From a virus (taxonomy: Duplodnaviria; Heunggongvirae; Uroviricota; Caudoviricetes), in the IMG/VR virus record IMGVR_UViG_2671180435_000009: a DNA stretch of 5,132 bases, one strand, 5' to 3'. This document shows positions 33 to 5,132 of this stretch, one piece after another. The position numbers and the translations under genes were made by a program. The notes under the pieces were generated by a model. That model was not told the DNA's origin, ran no database searches, and saw nothing but the letters and a program-made list of their open reading frames with translations. Within the stretch, counting starts at the first letter, position 1; each line of letters opens with the position of its first letter.

Positions 33-1159
33 AGTACCGCCTCCTGAAAATCACCCTGATAGAAAGCCGGTACACGCTGCATAACTTCANNNNNNNNNNN
101 NNNNNNNNNNNNNNNNNNNNNNNNNNNNNNNNNNNNNNNNNNNNNNNNNNNNNNNNNNNNNNNNNNNNNNNNNNNNNNNNNNNNNNNNNNNNNNNNNNNN
201 NNNNNNNNNNNNNNNNNNNNNNNNNNNNNNNNNNNNNNNNNNNNNNNNNNNNNNNNNNNNNNNNNNNNNNNNNNNNNNNNNNNNNNNNNNNNNNNNNNNN
301 NNNNNNNNNNNNNNNNNNNNNNNNNNNNNNNNNNNNNNNNNNNNNNNNNNNNNNNNNNNNNNNNNNNNNNNNNNNNNNNNNNNNNNNNNNNNNNNNNNNN
401 NNNNNNNNNNNNNNNNNNNNNNNNNNNNNNNNNNNNNNNNNNNNNNNNNNNNNNNNNNNNNNNNNNNNNNNNNNNNNNNNNNNNNNNNNNNNNNNNNNNN
501 NNNNNNNNNNNNNNNNNNNNNNNNNNNNNNNNNNNNNNNNNNNNNNNNNNNNNNNNNNNNNNNNNNNNNNNNNNNNNNNNNNNNNNNNNNNNNNNNNNNN
601 NNNNNNNNNNNNNNNNNNNNNNNNNNNNNNNNNNNNNNNNNNNNNNNNNNNNNNNNNNNNNNNNNNNNNNNNNNNNNNNNNNNNNNNNNNCCTGTACCGG
701 TAACGCAACACCTGCTGGCTGAGGAAAGACTTTACCATCCGTTTCCGCTATGGATGCGGCTTTCGGCTCTGCCGGTAAATCAGCGCCCGGNNNNNACCGA
801 AATTTACCGCCCTGATTCACGCGAATCAGACGCCCTTTGCTGATTGCCATGGCCAGCGATGAATTCGCCCGGCGGGAGGTAATCCCGAACATCAGTGCCA
901 GCTCATCCGCCGTTTGTGGGCCATGTTGTTCAATCGCCTCAGTCAGCATTTGCGCTGTCACTTTCGGTACCGGTGACACTGGTTCACTTTCACCAGCCTG
1001 AATCAGCCACCACATCGAACCCTTGTTATCCGCTTCACCACGGCGCTTCAGTTTCCACAGTTCGTTGACCGCATCTTCACGGCTGATTCCAAGGCGGGAC
1101 GCCACCACATGTGAAGAGGCTCTTTTCAGTGCTTTCAGTGCGTCAAATACAGTTTCCAT
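29..1159 (-). CDS. hypothetical protein with two N-terminal winged-helix-like repeats; over half the gene is masked
   Basis: ATG at 1159-1157 is preceded by GGAGG (1172-1168) with 8 nt spacing, 21 nt after the dnaC-like stop. The ORF track starts at TTG 1177, which I consider less likely. The frame is open from 1159 to the mask at 690 and the same coordinate frame ends at TGA 31-29. The visible N-terminus (METVFDALKALKRASSHVVASRLGISREDAVNELWKLKRRGE... and ...MLTEAIEQHGPQTADELALMFGITSRRANSSLAMAISKGRLIRVN) looks like two HTH/winged-helix units followed by a Pro/Ala-rich linker. Continuity across 90-690 and 791-795 cannot be verified. Confidence 0.5.
   Translation of the reverse strand: METVFDALKALKRASSHVVASRLGISREDAVNELWKLKRRGEADNKGSMWWLIQAGESEPVSPVPKVTAQMLTEAIEQHGPQTADELALMFGITSRRANSSLAMAISKGRLIRVNQGGKFRXXPGADLPAEPKAASIAETDGKVFPQPAGVALPVQXXXXXXXXXXXXXXXXXXXXXXXXXXXXXXXXXXXXXXXXXXXXXXXXXXXXXXXXXXXXXXXXXXXXXXXXXXXXXXXXXXXXXXXXXXXXXXXXXXXXXXXXXXXXXXXXXXXXXXXXXXXXXXXXXXXXXXXXXXXXXXXXXXXXXXXXXXXXXXXXXXXXXXXXXXXXXXXXXXXXXXXXXXXXXXXXXXXXXXXXXEVMQRVPAFYQGDFQEAVL
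90..690. other. masked or undetermined bases (601 N)
   Basis: Run of N in the supplied sequence; lies inside the 29..1159 ORF. Confidence 1.
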
Positions 1160-1180: not shown

Positions 1181-1927
1181 TTACTTCACAACTCCCGGAA
1201 AGCTGACATTTGAACGCCAGCTATCCCAGTTAAACGTCACCCACCGACAACCGTTCATGGTCATGCGGTCCATAATCCTCTCACCAAGAAGCGTGCTCAT
1301 TGCGGCATGATTCAGGTTTGTTAACATCCCGACACTGCACAGTGATGCTGTCCGGCGATCAATTATCTGGTGCAATACCACCTGCTCGTTTTTCGTCTCC
1401 CGCTGAATGCCTATTTCATCCAGGACCAGCAAATCAACCCCGCAAAGCTCCTGTAAAAATTTTTCACCGGATTTGCCGTTGTCGTAGCTGTCATGCAACA
1501 CGCTCATGACATCAGACTCGGTGACGATAATCACGCTGCGCCCCTTCGCCATCAGCCGGTTACCCATCGCCGCTGCAAGGTGATTTTTCCCGGTGCCGGT
1601 TTTACCGCTGAACACAAAATTCGTGCACCCGGTCATCAGTTCGTCAGCTATGGATTTGGCCTGGCTCAGCGCGTATTTTTGCCCGTCGTTCTGCACCTGA
1701 TAATTCGCAAACGAGCATTTGCTGTGCAGAGGCTGGATGCCCGAACGATTCAGGATTTTTTCCACCCGCAACTGGCGATTCTGGCGGTTAATCTCCTCGC
1801 TGCGTTTTCGTCCTTCAGCAAGTTGCCATTCCCGCCACTCCTCCACCGTCCGGTACGGTGGAACCGCCCCCTGTGGTGCAAGTCTGTGAATACGTTCAAG
1901 AACCCCGGCTGCCGCAATGTTTTTCAT
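1181..1927 (-). CDS. dnaC: DnaC-family AAA+ helicase loader (prophage-type DnaC paralog)
   Basis: Complete 248-aa ORF with ATG at 1927 and TAA at 1183-1181, with a G-rich SD (GGGGGTG) upstream. Walker A FSGKTGTGKNHLAAA and Walker B VDLLVLDEIG are present. Blocks NRSGIQPLHSKCSFANYQV, GMLTNLN, LLGERIMDRM and FNWDSWRS match E. coli DnaC as I remember it (NRSGIRPLHQNCSFENYRV, GMLTNSN, LLGERVMDRM, FNWDSYRS), and the N-terminus MKNI... matches MKNV.... This is from memory, not a database search. Confidence 0.93.
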   Translation of the reverse strand: MKNIAAAGVLERIHRLAPQGAVPPYRTVEEWREWQLAEGRKRSEEINRQNRQLRVEKILNRSGIQPLHSKCSFANYQVQNDGQKYALSQAKSIADELMTGCTNFVFSGKTGTGKNHLAAAMGNRLMAKGRSVIIVTESDVMSVLHDSYDNGKSGEKFLQELCGVDLLVLDEIGIQRETKNEQVVLHQIIDRRTASLCSVGMLTNLNHAAMSTLLGERIMDRMTMNGCRWVTFNWDSWRSNVSFPGVVK

Positions 1928-1933
1928 GCCACA

Positions 1934-3057
1934 TCACCCCCTGAATCCCGGCGGAATTTCGGTATCCGGTTCAGAAATATGATTCACACAACGCTGGTTG
2001 TTCGTGCCGCTTACCGGGAGCAACCAGGGGTTTTCAAAATTCCGGTCCGGCCCAAAAAACGNNNNNNNNNNNNNNNNNNNNNNNNNNNNNNNNNNNNNNN
2101 NNNNNNNNNNNNNNNNNNNNNNNNNNNNNNNNNNNNNNNNNNNNNNNNNNNNNNNNNNNNNNNNNNNNNNNNNNNNNNNNNNNNNNNNNNNNNNNNNNNN
2201 NNNNNNNNNNNNNNNNNNNNNNNNNNNNNNNNNNNNNNNNNNNNNNNNNNNNNNNNNNNNNNNNNNNNNNNNNNNNNNNNNNNNNNNNNNNNNNNNNNNN
2301 NNNNNNNNNNNNNNNNNNNNNNNNNNNNNNNNNNNNNNNNNNNNNNNNNNNNNNNNNNNNNNNNNNNNNNNNNNNNNNNNNNNNNNNNNNNNNNNNNNNN
2401 AGGCTGCTGCAGTTGGAGTGATTGCTCCGGCCTTGCGGTCATCACCTGCTGCACAGCGCCCGAATCGGCTTTCAGCGCATACGCTGAATCGGCTTCCGGT
2501 GTCGAGCCTGCTGGCTGACCAGGATTGACGGTCTGAACATCCCCTGCCTGGTTCGTGGCGTTTTTTACGCCATGGACCATAGTGTTTTGATCTTCTTTAT
2601 CTGTATCTTTATCTGTATCTGTCGTGACTCGTCGTGACATGTGCGTGACATTTCGTGACGCGCCGTGACAATCGCCATTTTGTTCCCGCTTTCTTTCCCT
2701 CTCTCGCTGCGCCCTCTTGCGCTCTGCAGGAGATTTTGCGGTTTGCGAAATATTGCCGTTGTCCTCTTTAAGCACCTGGCGTTTTTCCCATCCAGTGATT
2801 AAATCACCATCAAGTACCCGCCCCTGCATCGTCTGCAAAATTGAATCAATTACCTCTTCTGTCACGTCGAGCGCACTTGCCAAATCTTCTGTCGTGACAT
2901 CAATGTGACCTCGCGTGACATTTCGTGACGCGCTCACCAGGAGGTGGATATACACTGCCATCACTGTTGCAATTGGCTGCCCTGACACCCTGGCAATTGT
3001 TCGCCACTTAGGGTCATTTGGCATGTCATGCCATAATCTGAGCCAGGCGTTAGCCAT
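1934..3057 (-). CDS. phage replisome organizer (O-like N-terminal domain) with DnaT-like C-terminal tail; reading frame changes inside the masked block 2062-2400
   Basis: ATG at 3057-3055 follows an SD (AAGAGGTG, 3068-3061). The ORF track starts at GTG 3063. The N-terminus MANAWLRLWHDMPNDPKWRTIARVSGQ... fits the pattern I associate with phage replisome-organizer N-terminal domains. Downstream of the mask, a different frame reads ...NQRCVNHISEPDTEIPPGFRG and stops at TGA 1936-1934, 6 nt before the dnaC-like ATG. This closely matches the E. coli DnaT C-terminus as I recall it (...RDVNTVSEPDSQIPPGFRG). The ORF-track end at 2011 (tail RFLGRTGILKTPGCSR) is in the N-terminal frame and is probably spurious. 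One gene or two cannot be resolved because of the mask. Confidence 0.7.
2062..2400. other. masked or undetermined bases (339 N)
   Basis: Run of N; hides the junction between the organizer N-terminal frame and the DnaT-like tail frame. Confidence 1.
2596..2619. repeat. 2 x 12-bp perfect tandem repeat TTTATCTGTATC in an AT-rich tract
   Basis: Read directly: 2596-2607 and 2608-2619 are identical. On the coding strand they encode DTDK DTDK. The tract lies immediately beside the iteron array. Confidence 0.8.
2621..2670. repeat. iteron array: 5 direct CGTGAC copies at 10-11 bp spacing; putative phage origin inside the organizer gene
   Basis: CGTGAC at 2623-2628, 2633-2638, 2644-2649, 2654-2659 and 2664-2669, all in the same orientation at roughly one helical turn, flanked by the AT-rich tract 2581-2620. 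The layout resembles lambda ori, which lies within gene O. Confidence 0.6.
2861..2933. repeat. second iteron cluster: 1 inverted copy (GTCACG 2861-2866) plus 4 direct copies
   Basis: CGTGAC or GTGAC at 2893-2898, 2905-2909, 2914-2919 and 2924-2929, with 10-11 bp spacing. A 21-bp exact copy of part of the first array (GCGTGACATTTCGTGACGCGC) occurs at 2643-2663 and 2913-2933. Confidence 0.5.
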
Positions 3058-3128
3058 ACTCACCTCTTCTGATACCGAATCTTTTTACTCACGAGTTGCC
3101 GGGAGCGATTCGATATGGCTATTGTCAG

Positions 3129-3408
3129 TCAATGTACTGCCACAGCATTTCCTGCCGGGCCACCACGGTTCATCTGATTGAAACCGGCGATTGCCACTGC
3201 GACAAAATCATCAGCGTCTCTCACCAGTCGTTCATGCGTCTCCACCAGTTCCCGAAAATAAGCTGAACTGTGGCTGCGCATTCGAGCCACCAGCGGAGGT
3301 GGCATTGCCCTTTCGATCGCAGGTAACAACGCCTGAATTTTTTCAACAGCGTCAGGGGTGTCTTTATCCAGCCAACGGAAAATCTTTTGGGTGTTGAGAT
3401 AAAGCGTG
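3129..3408 (-). CDS. 3' portion of an unidentified gene immediately upstream of the organizer gene (position of a CII/YdaT-like regulator); 5' end masked
   Basis: The minus frame is open from the mask edge at 3408 to TGA 3131-3129, giving 92 visible codons (...TLYLNTQKIFRWLDKDTPDAVEKIQALLPAIERAMPPPLVARMRSHSSAYFRELVETHERLVRDADDFVAVAIAGFNQMNRGGPAGNAVAVH). The ORF-track TTG start at 3329 is an artefact, since the frame is open upstream of it. No family recognised. Confidence 0.45.
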
Positions 3409-4586
3409 NNNNNNNNNNNNNNNNNNNNNNNNNNNNNNNNNNNNNNNNNNNNNNNNNNNNNNNNNNNNNNNNNNNNNNNNNNNNNNNNNNNNNNNNNNNN
3501 NNNNNNNNNNNNNNNNNNNNNNNNNNNNNNNNNNNNNNNNNNNNNNNNNNNNNNNNNNNNNNNNNNNNNNNNNNNNNNNNNNNNNNNNNNNNNNNNNNNN
3601 NNNNNNNNNNNNNNNNNNNNNNNNNNNNNNNNNNNNNNNNNNNNNNNNNNNNNNNNNNNNNNNNNNNNNNNNNNNNNNNNNNNNNNNNNNNNNNNNNNNN
3701 NNNNNNNNNNNNNNNNNNNNNNNNNNNNNNNNNNNNNNNNNNNNNNNNNNNNNNNNNNNNNNNNNNNNNNNNNNNNNNNNNNNNNNNNNNNNNNNNNNNN
3801 NNNNNNNNNNNNNNNNNNNNNNNNNNNNNNNNNNNNNNNNNNNNNNNNNNNNNNNNNNNNNNNNNNNNNNNNNNNNNNNNNNNNNNNNNNNNNNNNNNNN
3901 NNNNNNNNNNNNNNNNNNNNNNNNNNNNNNNNNNNNNNNNNNNNNNNNNNNNNNNNNNNNNNNNNNNNNNNNNNNNNNNNNNNNNNNNNNNNNNNNNNNN
4001 NNNNNNNNNNNNNNNNNNNNNNNNNNNNNNNNNNNNNNNNNNNNNNNNNNNNNNNNNNNNNNNNNNNNNNNNNNNNNNNNNNNNNNNNNNNNNNNNNNNN
4101 NNNNNNNNNNNNNNNNNNNNNNNNNNNNNNNNNNNNNNNNNNNNNNNNNNNNNNNNNNNNNNNNNNNNNNNNNNNNNNNNNNNNNNNNNNNNNNNNNNNN
4201 NNNNNNNNNNNNNNNNNNNNNNNNNNNNNNNNNNNNNNNNNNNNNNNNNNNNNNNNNNNNNNNNNNNNNNNNNNNNNNNNNNNNNNNNNNNNNNNNNNNN
4301 NNNNNNNNNNNNNNNNNNNNNNNNNNNNNNNNNNNNNNNNNNNNNNNNNNNNNNNNNNNNNNNNNNNNNNNNNNNNNNNNNNNNNNNNNNNNNNNNNNNN
4401 NNNNNNNNNNNNNNNNNNNNNNNNNNNNNNNNNNNNNNNNNNNNNNNNNNNNNNNNNNNNNNNNNNNNNNNNNNNNNNNNNNNNNNNNNNNNNNNNNNNN
4501 NNNNNNNNNNNNNNNNNNNNNNNNNNNNNNNNNNNNNNNNNNNNNNNNNNNNNNNNNNNNNNNNNNNNNNNNNNNNNNNNNNNNNN
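3409..4586. other. masked or undetermined bases (1178 N)
   Basis: Run of N; the largest hidden block, bordered by genes entering it from both sides. Confidence 1.
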
Positions 4587-4611
4587 GCCTAAATCAGAGG
4601 AGATATGTAAA

Positions 4612-5010
4612 ATGAGTACAGTCCTTTCCCCAATGGTTTCAGAATTTGAGACAGTTGAGCAAGAAAATAGTTACAANNNNNNNNNNNNNNNNNNNNNNNN
4701 NNNNNNNNNNNNNNNNNNNNNNNNNNNNNNNNNNNNNNNNNNNNNNNNNNNNNNNNNNNNNNNNNNNNNNNNNNNNNNNNNNNNNNNNNNNNNNNNNNNN
4801 NNNNNNNNNNNNNNNNNNNNNNNNNNNNNNNNNNNNNNNNNNNNNNNNNNNNNNNNNNNNNNNNNNNNNNNNNNNNNNNNNNNNNNNNNNNNNNNNNNNN
4901 NNNNNNNNNNNNNNNNNNNNNNNNNNNNNNNNNNNNNNNNNNNNNNNNNNNNNNNNNNNNNTACCTGTATCCTCCAAGCGAGCGAGTTCTTGGTCTTCGT
5001 GAAATTGTAA
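4612..5010 (+). CDS. hypothetical small protein (about 132 aa if continuous), middle masked, lower-GC region
   Basis: ATG at 4612 follows GAGGAG (4597-4602) with 9 nt spacing. The ATG overlaps a TGA (4613-4615) that would terminate an upstream plus-strand frame coming out of the mask. Visible N-terminus is MSTVLSPMVSEFETVEQENSY. The same coordinate frame is open beyond the mask and ends at TAA 5008-5010 (...TCILQASEFLVFVKL). Continuity is unverifiable. Confidence 0.3.
   Translation: MSTVLSPMVSEFETVEQENSYXXXXXXXXXXXXXXXXXXXXXXXXXXXXXXXXXXXXXXXXXXXXXXXXXXXXXXXXXXXXXXXXXXXXXXXXXXXXXXXXXXXXXXXXXXXXXXXXTCILQASEFLVFVKL
4677..4961. other. masked or undetermined bases (285 N)
   Basis: Run of N inside the putative 4612..5010 ORF. 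Confidence 1.
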
Positions 5011-5132
5011 CTCATCCTAACTACATCATCCTTTACCGAGTAACAGCATCAAGCATAGAAGTAGTAAATATTGTGCATTCTCGAAGACAGTATCCAGGCA
5101 AAAACAGTTAATTATTCCCGCCGACAGAACCA

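Follow-up and report, generated by a model that had tools for sequence, protein, structure and literature searches.

A probable PaaR-PaaA-ParE operon with a lambda cI-type regulator domain in the immunity region of a lambdoid Escherichia prophage

The paaR2-paaA2-parE2 operon is carried by the cryptic prophage CP-933P of Escherichia coli O157:H7 (PMC8630535), and its description goes back to Hallez et al. 2010, as cited in PMC8630535 (Jurenas et al. 2021). PaaR2 is the cI equivalent of this prophage. It is made from a leaderless mRNA and binds to OR-type and OL-type operators, and the authors reported no sequence similarity between PaaR2 and cI (PMC8630535). YdaS and YdaT are the equivalents of Cro and CII, respectively, and the CP-933P locus is bistable (PMC8630535). 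Relative to phage lambda, PaaR2 replaces cI and paaA2-parE2 replace rexA/rexB (PMC9986795). The antitoxin PaaA2 is devoid of a DNA-binding domain and is broken down by ClpAP and ClpXP, and the toxin ParE2 triggers the SOS response and is found on the nucleoid (PMC8630535). The paaR2-paaA2-parE2 operon stabilises an unstable plasmid by post-segregational killing (PMC8630535). Because single-cell work found no toxin activation at steady state (PMC8630535), the biological role of PaaR-PaaA-ParE stands as a proposal only.

We analysed a stretch of phage DNA of 5,132 nucleotides, referred to as the window. Its right end, from position 4587 to 5132, is very probably the distal part of an operon that encodes a regulator, a PaaA-type antitoxin and a toxin of the ParE type and that belongs to the immunity region of a lambdoid prophage of Escherichia. 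Judged by its homologies, the locus belongs to the published PaaR-PaaA-ParE family and does not represent a new system; this type of system has already been published, structurally studied and annotated at the family level in RefSeq. The features of the locus are collected in Table 1.

Within the right end, only 4587-4676 and 4962-5132 are readable, the remainder being N in the window. A gapped exact-pattern scan of a viral contig collection yielded nine matching loci. Four public viral contigs, L002, L003, L004 and L009, showed zero substitutions against all readable blocks of the window in BLAST comparisons. Four blocks were 100% identical to these contigs, and the block at 691-2061 scored 99.3-99.4% only because the alignment spanned a 5-N mask at 786-790. 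The hidden bases were read from L009, in which position 10333 corresponds to window position 4587 and position 10863 to window position 5132. The lengths of the N blocks turned out to be unfaithful: the mask of 285 N at 4677-4961 replaces 270 bases, that of 1178 N at 3409-4586 replaces 1012 and that of 339 N at 2062-2400 replaces 280. As a consequence, coordinates within the masks were counted from the nearest readable base. An insertion of 15 bases at the 4677-4961 mask was considered and dropped, since the spacing was 270, and never 285, in all nine matching loci and the lengths of the other masks are unfaithful as well. The end of the antitoxin gene was thus counted from its start, the mask adding 15 spurious positions, and the start of the toxin gene was counted back from its stop codon, TAA 5109-5111. 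In the true sequence the antitoxin stop and the toxin start overlap by one base (TAATG).

Table 1. Features of the locus in window coordinates and in the viral contig L009
Feature	Window position	Strand	L009 position	Reading of coordinates
YdaT/CII-like gene, 141 aa	3129..3554	-	9041-9466	readable 3129-3408; upper end counted from 3129
Cro/YdaS-like HTH gene, 87 aa	3717..3980	-	9463-9726	masked; counted back from 4587
Two OR-like 15-bp palindromic operator candidates	4017..4056		9763-9777 and 9788-9802	masked; counted back from 4587
PaaR-like immunity regulator gene, 166 aa, HTH	4092..4592	+	9838-10338	start counted back from stop
Shine-Dalgarno sequence GAGGAG for antitoxin	4597..4602	+		read directly; 9 nt before ATG 4612
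PaaA-type antitoxin gene, 64 aa, 195 nt with stop	4612..4806	+	10358-10552	readable 4612-4676
ParE-family toxin gene, 96 aa, 291 nt with stop	4821..5111	+	10552-10842	readable 4962-5111
Intrinsic terminator of the operon, first 7 bases of 5' arm	5126..5132	+		window ends inside hairpin

The antitoxin has PaaA2 (PF21217, 3e-23) as its sole Pfam match, and it matches the PaaA2 chains of the PDB entries 3zbe, 5cw7 and 5cze at 1.4e-23. In Pfam this protein showed no ribbon-helix-helix or HTH domain, and Pfam and NCBIfam gave no match to a ribbon-helix-helix/ParD family. The toxin matches the Pfam family ParE_toxin at 1.8e-17 over 89 of the 89 profile positions, and the ParE2 chain 5cw7_B in the PDB at 6.7e-37 with 67% identity. 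Both proteins have paralogues at a second locus of strain EDL933 (NZ_CP124741.1, referred to as L011), to which the antitoxin is 77% and the toxin 86% identical. The dN/dS values in these comparisons are 0.09 for the antitoxin and 0.07 for the toxin, and dS for the two genes is 1.3-1.7. Low dN/dS values together with a dS above 1 point to strong purifying selection on the antitoxin and toxin genes. The reading frames of the operon are intact. On the operon strand a single terminator hairpin was found, and it is located after the toxin gene. Direct folding of L009 10857-10878 gave a hairpin with a 9-bp stem and a U run behind it, with a free energy of -15.1 kcal/mol and a z of -3.2; a promoter/terminator scan showed no enrichment over shuffled sequence and missed this hairpin. 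With the regulator gene on the same strand and this hairpin behind the toxin gene, the regulator is probably cotranscribed with the toxin-antitoxin pair.

The initial annotation had inferred a plus-strand gene hidden in the mask upstream of ATG 4612, coupled in translation to the frame that starts there. The hidden gene is indeed present and lies in the same operon: it encodes the 166-aa regulator, of which only the last six bases (GCC TAA, the stop codon being TAA 4590-4592) are readable in the window. The proposed coupling was based on TGA 4613-4615, which overlaps ATG 4612-4614, and this part of the inference did not hold. The frame that ends at this TGA is open for only 28 codons and lacks a start codon, and the antitoxin ATG lies 19 nt beyond the true upstream stop. 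The ATGA overlap as a coupling signal was accordingly set aside as a coincidence. The RefSeq annotation of the corresponding locus in E. coli FDAARGOS_944, which is 99.4% identical, agrees with these boundaries of the upstream gene and the antitoxin gene. Homology searches identified the frame at 4612 as a PaaA-type antitoxin gene and its upstream partner as a PaaR-like regulator gene. The accessory nature that had been suspected for the right end is supported, in that its genes do not belong to the phage core.

The regulator carries an HTH_3 domain (Pfam, 8e-9), and its residues 2-81 match the N-terminal domain of the lambda repressor (1lmb) at 3e-9. A Pfam search detected no Peptidase_S24 domain. 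Tested against the lambda cI/LexA type, the protein therefore has the N-terminal HTH domain and is devoid of the S24 autocleavage domain. The C-terminal part has different relatives: its residues 103-166 share 56% identity with the C-terminal end of the L011 regulator, and residues 106-162 match the C-terminal part of the NCBIfam DicA model at 7e-8. When the regulators of this allele, of L011 and of phage Evi (PaaR2-type) were aligned, about 60 C-terminal residues were conserved and the N-terminal parts were unrelated; this C-terminal domain is conserved both in the Evi regulator, which starts with MQKKE as PaaR2 does, and in DicA. The N-terminal part is lambda-like in the allele described here and 434-repressor-like in L011, and that of the PaaR2-type aligns with neither. 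The regulator allele thus appears to be a lambda cI-type N-terminal DNA-binding domain joined to a PaaR/DicA C-terminal domain. At the DNA level, homology to the EDL933 locus sets in within the regulator gene, at L009 10211 (about codon 125), and extends across the toxin-antitoxin pair as far as ydfA at 76%.

The surroundings of the operon are those of an immunity region. The two OR-like palindromes upstream of the regulator gene match AATAGCGATGCTATT, and two further AATAGCGATGCTATT palindromes lie just past the terminator and the window end, at L009 10899-10913 and 10926-10940. Over the two strands of L009 together the pattern has seven matches, six of them at these four sites, with 0.4 expected by chance. 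The four palindromes are predicted binding sites that would form an OR-like set and an OL-like set bracketing the operon, in parallel with OR and OL/PL of CP-933P. The -10 hexamer of a promoter-like sequence, TTCAAA-17-TAGAAT, stops 7 nt short of the regulator ATG. This candidate promoter, which we take only as a lead, would give a leaderless regulator mRNA, as described for paaR2 (PMC8630535). On the opposite strand, the Cro/YdaS-like protein matches HTH_3 in Pfam at 4e-4 (20.8 bits, under the 23-bit gathering cut-off of the family) and the transcriptional repressors of PHROG 35 at 8e-17, and it is 36% identical to a YdaS-family protein of EDL933. The YdaT/CII-like protein matches YdaT_toxin in Pfam at 5e-9 and the CII-like activators of PHROG 163 at 3e-40. 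L009 contains a single exact copy of the published YdaT operator, TTGATTN6AATCAA, at 9456-9473; this site is on the ydaS/ydaT junction and corresponds to the position of OM in CP-933P (PMC9986795). Beyond the ydaT-like gene there are an O-like replication gene with iteron-like repeats and then a DnaC/IstB-like ATPase gene. From the O-like gene through to ydfA and dicB, the genes of EDL933, E. coli FDAARGOS_944 and phage Evi are arranged as they are here.

The locus resembles that of CP-933P in most aspects of its organisation. The three genes agree in their order and orientation and lie between OR and OL, divergent from ydaS-ydaT, with an O-like gene on one side and ydfA through dicB on the other. 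In both loci the antitoxin lacks a DNA-binding domain and the regulator lacks an S24 autocleavage domain; the C-terminal approximately 60 residues of the regulator are common to the two, and the toxins are 67% identical. The locus is set apart by its regulator allele. Whereas the PaaR2-type regulator of phage Evi has 123 aa, the regulator here has 166 aa, and unlike PaaR2 it possesses an N-terminal domain detectably homologous to that of lambda cI (3e-9). The operator candidates are 15-bp AATAGCGATGCTATT palindromes here and GTTTAGTAA-type repeats in CP-933P. In addition, the C-terminal tail of the antitoxin resembles that of the second EDL933 pair (L011), not that of PaaA2. Given the different N-terminal domain and the different operator candidates as compared with PaaR2, the locus appears to be a further, heteroimmune allele beside those of PaaR1 and PaaR2.

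The closest characterised relative is L011, with identities of 77% for the antitoxin, 86% for the toxin and 56% for the C-terminal part of the regulator. L011 is presumably the paaR1-paaA1-parE1 locus of CP-933M, since the antitoxin that it encodes is not identical to the crystallised PaaA2. Its regulator nevertheless departs from the one described here in the 434-repressor-like N-terminal domain, and the Cro-like partners are only 36% identical; the two loci should be heteroimmune. As in the cI-rexA-rexB arrangement of lambda, accessory genes are situated downstream of the repressor gene between OR and OL, and the N-terminal domains of the repressors are homologous. In contrast with lambda, the accessory genes have no RexA/RexB homology and the repressor is without a LexA-type C-terminal domain. 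The toxin falls into the same Pfam family (PF05016) as those of the canonical ParD-ParE systems of plasmid RK2, Caulobacter and Vibrio. Unlike the antitoxins of those systems, the one here has no ribbon-helix-helix domain, and the control of transcription is delegated to a separate regulator. The dicA-dicC region of the Qin prophage in E. coli K-12 shares the divergent layout, the downstream genes ydfA-ydfB-ydfC-dicB and a related DicA C-terminal region, whereas its dicA gene is followed immediately by ydfA and the toxin-antitoxin pair is absent there. Homology between Qin and this locus resumes only 38 nt before ydfA. Relative to K-12 Qin, the toxin-antitoxin pair is thus an insertion, an accessory cassette.

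A homologue of at least the toxin-antitoxin part is present in 842 of 5426 complete E. coli genomes. At least 80% of the query is covered in 72 of these 842, two listed examples showing about 79% DNA identity, and the allele described here was found at 99% identity or above in only 2 of the 5426 genomes. Outside E. coli, two-gene relatives occur in Paracoccus, Acetobacter, Komagataeibacter, Pseudomonas and uncultured bacteria, with 58-73% identity for the toxin and 62-80% for the antitoxin. No regulator match was found at the loci of these two-gene relatives, and the upstream gene was unrelated in the two loci inspected. Among deposited phage genomes, the toxin was found only in phage Evi, where its gene is unannotated and the protein 67% identical, plus a distant 34% match in an unannotated 5.3-kb faecal phage record. 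A plasmid collection gave only two distant matches, one of which is a 286-kb EDL933 record that is labelled as a plasmid and contains prophage genes; we used this record solely as the source of the paralogues.

The initial annotation had reported a drop in G+C content at the right end, and its counts are exact: 33 of 90 bases at 4587-4676 (36.7%) and 71 of 171 bases at 4962-5132 (41.5%). Over the readable bases, the right end has 39.8% G+C as compared with 52.2% elsewhere in the window (chi-square p = 2e-4). Once the masked bases were restored, the difference shrank to 45.2% in the right end (L009 10333-10863) versus 51.1% in the rest (p = 0.012). The values for the restored genes are 45.5% for the regulator, 48.2% for the antitoxin, 43.3% for the toxin, 47% for the Cro-like gene, 50.7% for the YdaT-like gene and 54.7% for the O-like replication gene; the toxin-antitoxin cassette as a whole has 45.4%, and the downstream early-left genes have 45-49%. 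The G+C step is therefore real yet small, and the readable pieces exaggerate the drop. It is located at the repressor/cro boundary, with the more G+C-rich replication module (51-55%) on one side and the entire leftward block on the other, and the cassette is not singled out. Of the reported shift, a small step persists after unmasking, and its bearing on the cassette in particular does not. The use of a G+C island as a marker of the cassette was rejected, the restored cassette being about equal to the regulator in composition. The case is a reminder that the readable fragments of a masked gene can inflate an apparent composition shift. Then, could the low G+C still reflect a recently acquired foreign island, a moron confined to the two right-end genes? 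The readable pieces at 37-42%, the absence of the pair from the equivalent site in Qin and the existence of the regulator-free two-gene unit in the four bacterial genera named above all go in this direction. However, the restored composition of the cassette is that of the regulator and near that of the early-left genes, and 485-nt windows at or below the cassette G+C make up 14-38% of those in related phage contigs, which places the cassette between the 14th and the 38th percentile. The composition step does not coincide with the cassette borders, and the dS of 1.3-1.7 from the EDL933 pair points to a long residence in these prophages. A recent acquisition is for these reasons improbable.

Two other readings concern what the pair does. 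The proteins might constitute an ordinary RelBE-type module, in which the toxin would cut mRNA on the ribosome. The RefSeq product names are of the RelB/RelE family, the antitoxin scores 94 bits against the NCBIfam equivalog TA_RelB_antitoxin (cut-off 50), and the toxin scores 29.3 bits against RelE_StbE, slightly over the cut-off of 27.9. On the other hand, the closest solved structures are PaaA2 and, at 67% identity, ParE2, Pfam assigns the two proteins to PaaA2 and ParE_toxin, and the SOS induction and nucleoid location of ParE2 are unlike an mRNA interferase (PMC8630535). An mRNA-cutting toxin is hardly to be expected under these circumstances. Alternatively, the pair might be a module for phage defence or superinfection exclusion and the counterpart of RexAB, such that an infecting phage would free the toxin and the infection would be aborted. 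The position is suited to such a role: the prediction in the initial annotation of accessory genes in the place of rexAB was right, as the pair follows the repressor gene within one operon, between the OR-like and OL-like sites, and it would be expected to be expressed in the lysogen. The following observations stand against this. The regulator, antitoxin and toxin had no matches in PADLOC-DB at E <= 0.01; the pair has no homology to RexA/RexB, Pfam giving PaaA2 and ParE instead; and, among the papers since 2022 mentioning PaaA2, the 25 best-ranked of 48 report no defence phenotype, the published phenotype being addiction (PMC8630535). We consider a defence function to be quite unlikely.

The reading that we prefer is a PaaR-PaaA-ParE operon acting as in CP-933P. 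Toxicity, neutralisation, operator binding and addiction are carried over here from homologues that are 67-86% identical, and the following sequence of events is drawn by analogy with them. Indirect support for such activity in this allele comes from the intact reading frames and the dN/dS of 0.07-0.09. The regulator would serve as the cI equivalent of the prophage: it would bind to the OR and OL palindromes, keep the cro-like operon repressed and regulate its own operon, and its mRNA would probably be leaderless. As the regulator would control its own operon in the manner of a cI equivalent, the toxin-antitoxin pair would be made during lysogeny. The antitoxin, devoid of a DNA-binding domain and presumably unstable, would fold onto the toxin and neutralise it. 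The toxin, with its ParE fold, would damage DNA metabolism, topoisomerase being the likely target. If the locus were lost or replaced, the antitoxin would decay and the toxin would kill or arrest the cell. A toxin that acts after the loss or replacement of its locus would make the pair an addiction module, which may stabilise both the prophage and its immunity region.

A bolder proposal, which we put forward as speculative and on balance unlikely, is that the PaaR-type repressors constitute a heteroimmune series. N-terminal domains of different types, lambda-like here, 434-like in L011 and of a third type in PaaR2, would have been recombined with their matching operators onto one conserved C-terminal domain linked to paaA-parE. 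The pair would work as a lock that kills recombinants for the whole immunity region, or might additionally serve as a defence that aborts infections and is driven by the lysogenic promoter. If this were true, the allele described here would connect PaaR to lambda cI directly by sequence for the first time. Independently of that proposal, the presence of a lambda-type domain on a PaaR C-terminus lends sequence support to the published functional argument that PaaR is a cI equivalent. The locus also would provide a third immunity specificity with which to ask if the toxin-antitoxin pair guards immunity regions against replacement.

Candidate control sites of the immunity region were located in L009, a public viral contig that is identical to the readable blocks of the window and supplies its masked bases. 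The published YdaT operator, TTGATTN6AATCAA, has a single exact copy in the 11.9-kb contig, on the junction of the Cro-like and YdaT-like genes. In prophage CP-933P, OM/PRE is found at the same place. Upstream of the PaaR-like regulator gene, the -10 hexamer of a promoter-like sequence ends 7 nt before the ATG, and no Shine-Dalgarno sequence is present between the two in L009. This arrangement suggests that the regulator mRNA is leaderless, as are the mRNAs of cI and paaR2.

The O-like replication gene carries two clusters of the (C)GTGAC(A) repeat, and a perfect 12-nt tandem (TCTTTATCTGTA x2) stands ahead of the first cluster. The clusters look like origin iterons located inside the initiator gene, as in lambda ori. 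A gene for a 248-aa IstB/DnaC-like ATPase, the helicase-loader partner of the replication module, overlaps with its start region the end of the O-like gene. Comparison with matching contigs showed that the lengths of the N blocks in the window differ from the true hidden lengths, so that distances and reading frames spanning the masks can not be trusted.

Coordinates of sequence features and masked blocks (window positions unless L009 is named)
Feature	Position	Strand	Remark
N block	90-690		601 N; 631 bases in matching contigs
IstB/DnaC-like ATPase	1181-1927	-	Pfam IstB_IS21, 3e-19
N block	2062-2400		339 N; 280 bases in matching contigs
(C)GTGAC(A) repeats, two clusters	2594-2669 and 2888-2929		
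N block	3409-4586		1178 N; 1012 bases in matching contigs
N block	4677-4961		285 N; 270 bases in matching contigs
YdaT operator TTGATTN6AATCAA	L009 9456-9473		masked in window
Region with promoter-like TTCAAA-17-TAGAAT	L009 9802-9840		masked in window

Several database entries call for comment. The PaaA2-type protein encoded from window 4612 onwards (RefSeq WP_038338941.1) is called 'RelB family antitoxin' by NCBI model NF050103, although a RelB-type DNA-binding domain is absent and the solved relative is PaaA2; this name for the product is misleading. In Escherichia phage Evi (LR597642.1), the antitoxin and PaaR2-type regulator genes are both annotated and the ParE toxin gene (L012 3501-3776) is unannotated. 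The 286-kb EDL933 'plasmid unnamed2' (NZ_CP124741.1) is labelled a non-mobilizable plasmid. It contains the immunity and early region of a lambdoid prophage, and the record probably represents a misassembly or a piece of the chromosome.

Other PaaA-ParE pairs (L014-L021; toxin identity 58-73%) occur in Paracoccus, Acetobacter, Komagataeibacter, Pseudomonas and metagenome-assembled genomes, several of them on small contigs. The PaaR-like regulator had no match at these loci, and the upstream gene was unrelated to it in both of the two loci inspected. The immunity and toxin-antitoxin module recurs in E. coli FDAARGOS_944 (97.8% over 1.86 kb), where the O-like gene joined to it is a different one and an ECs1072-family gene is present in addition (L001 2855-5134 versus window 2401-3408). 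This arrangement indicates a mosaic breakpoint near the YdaT-like gene.
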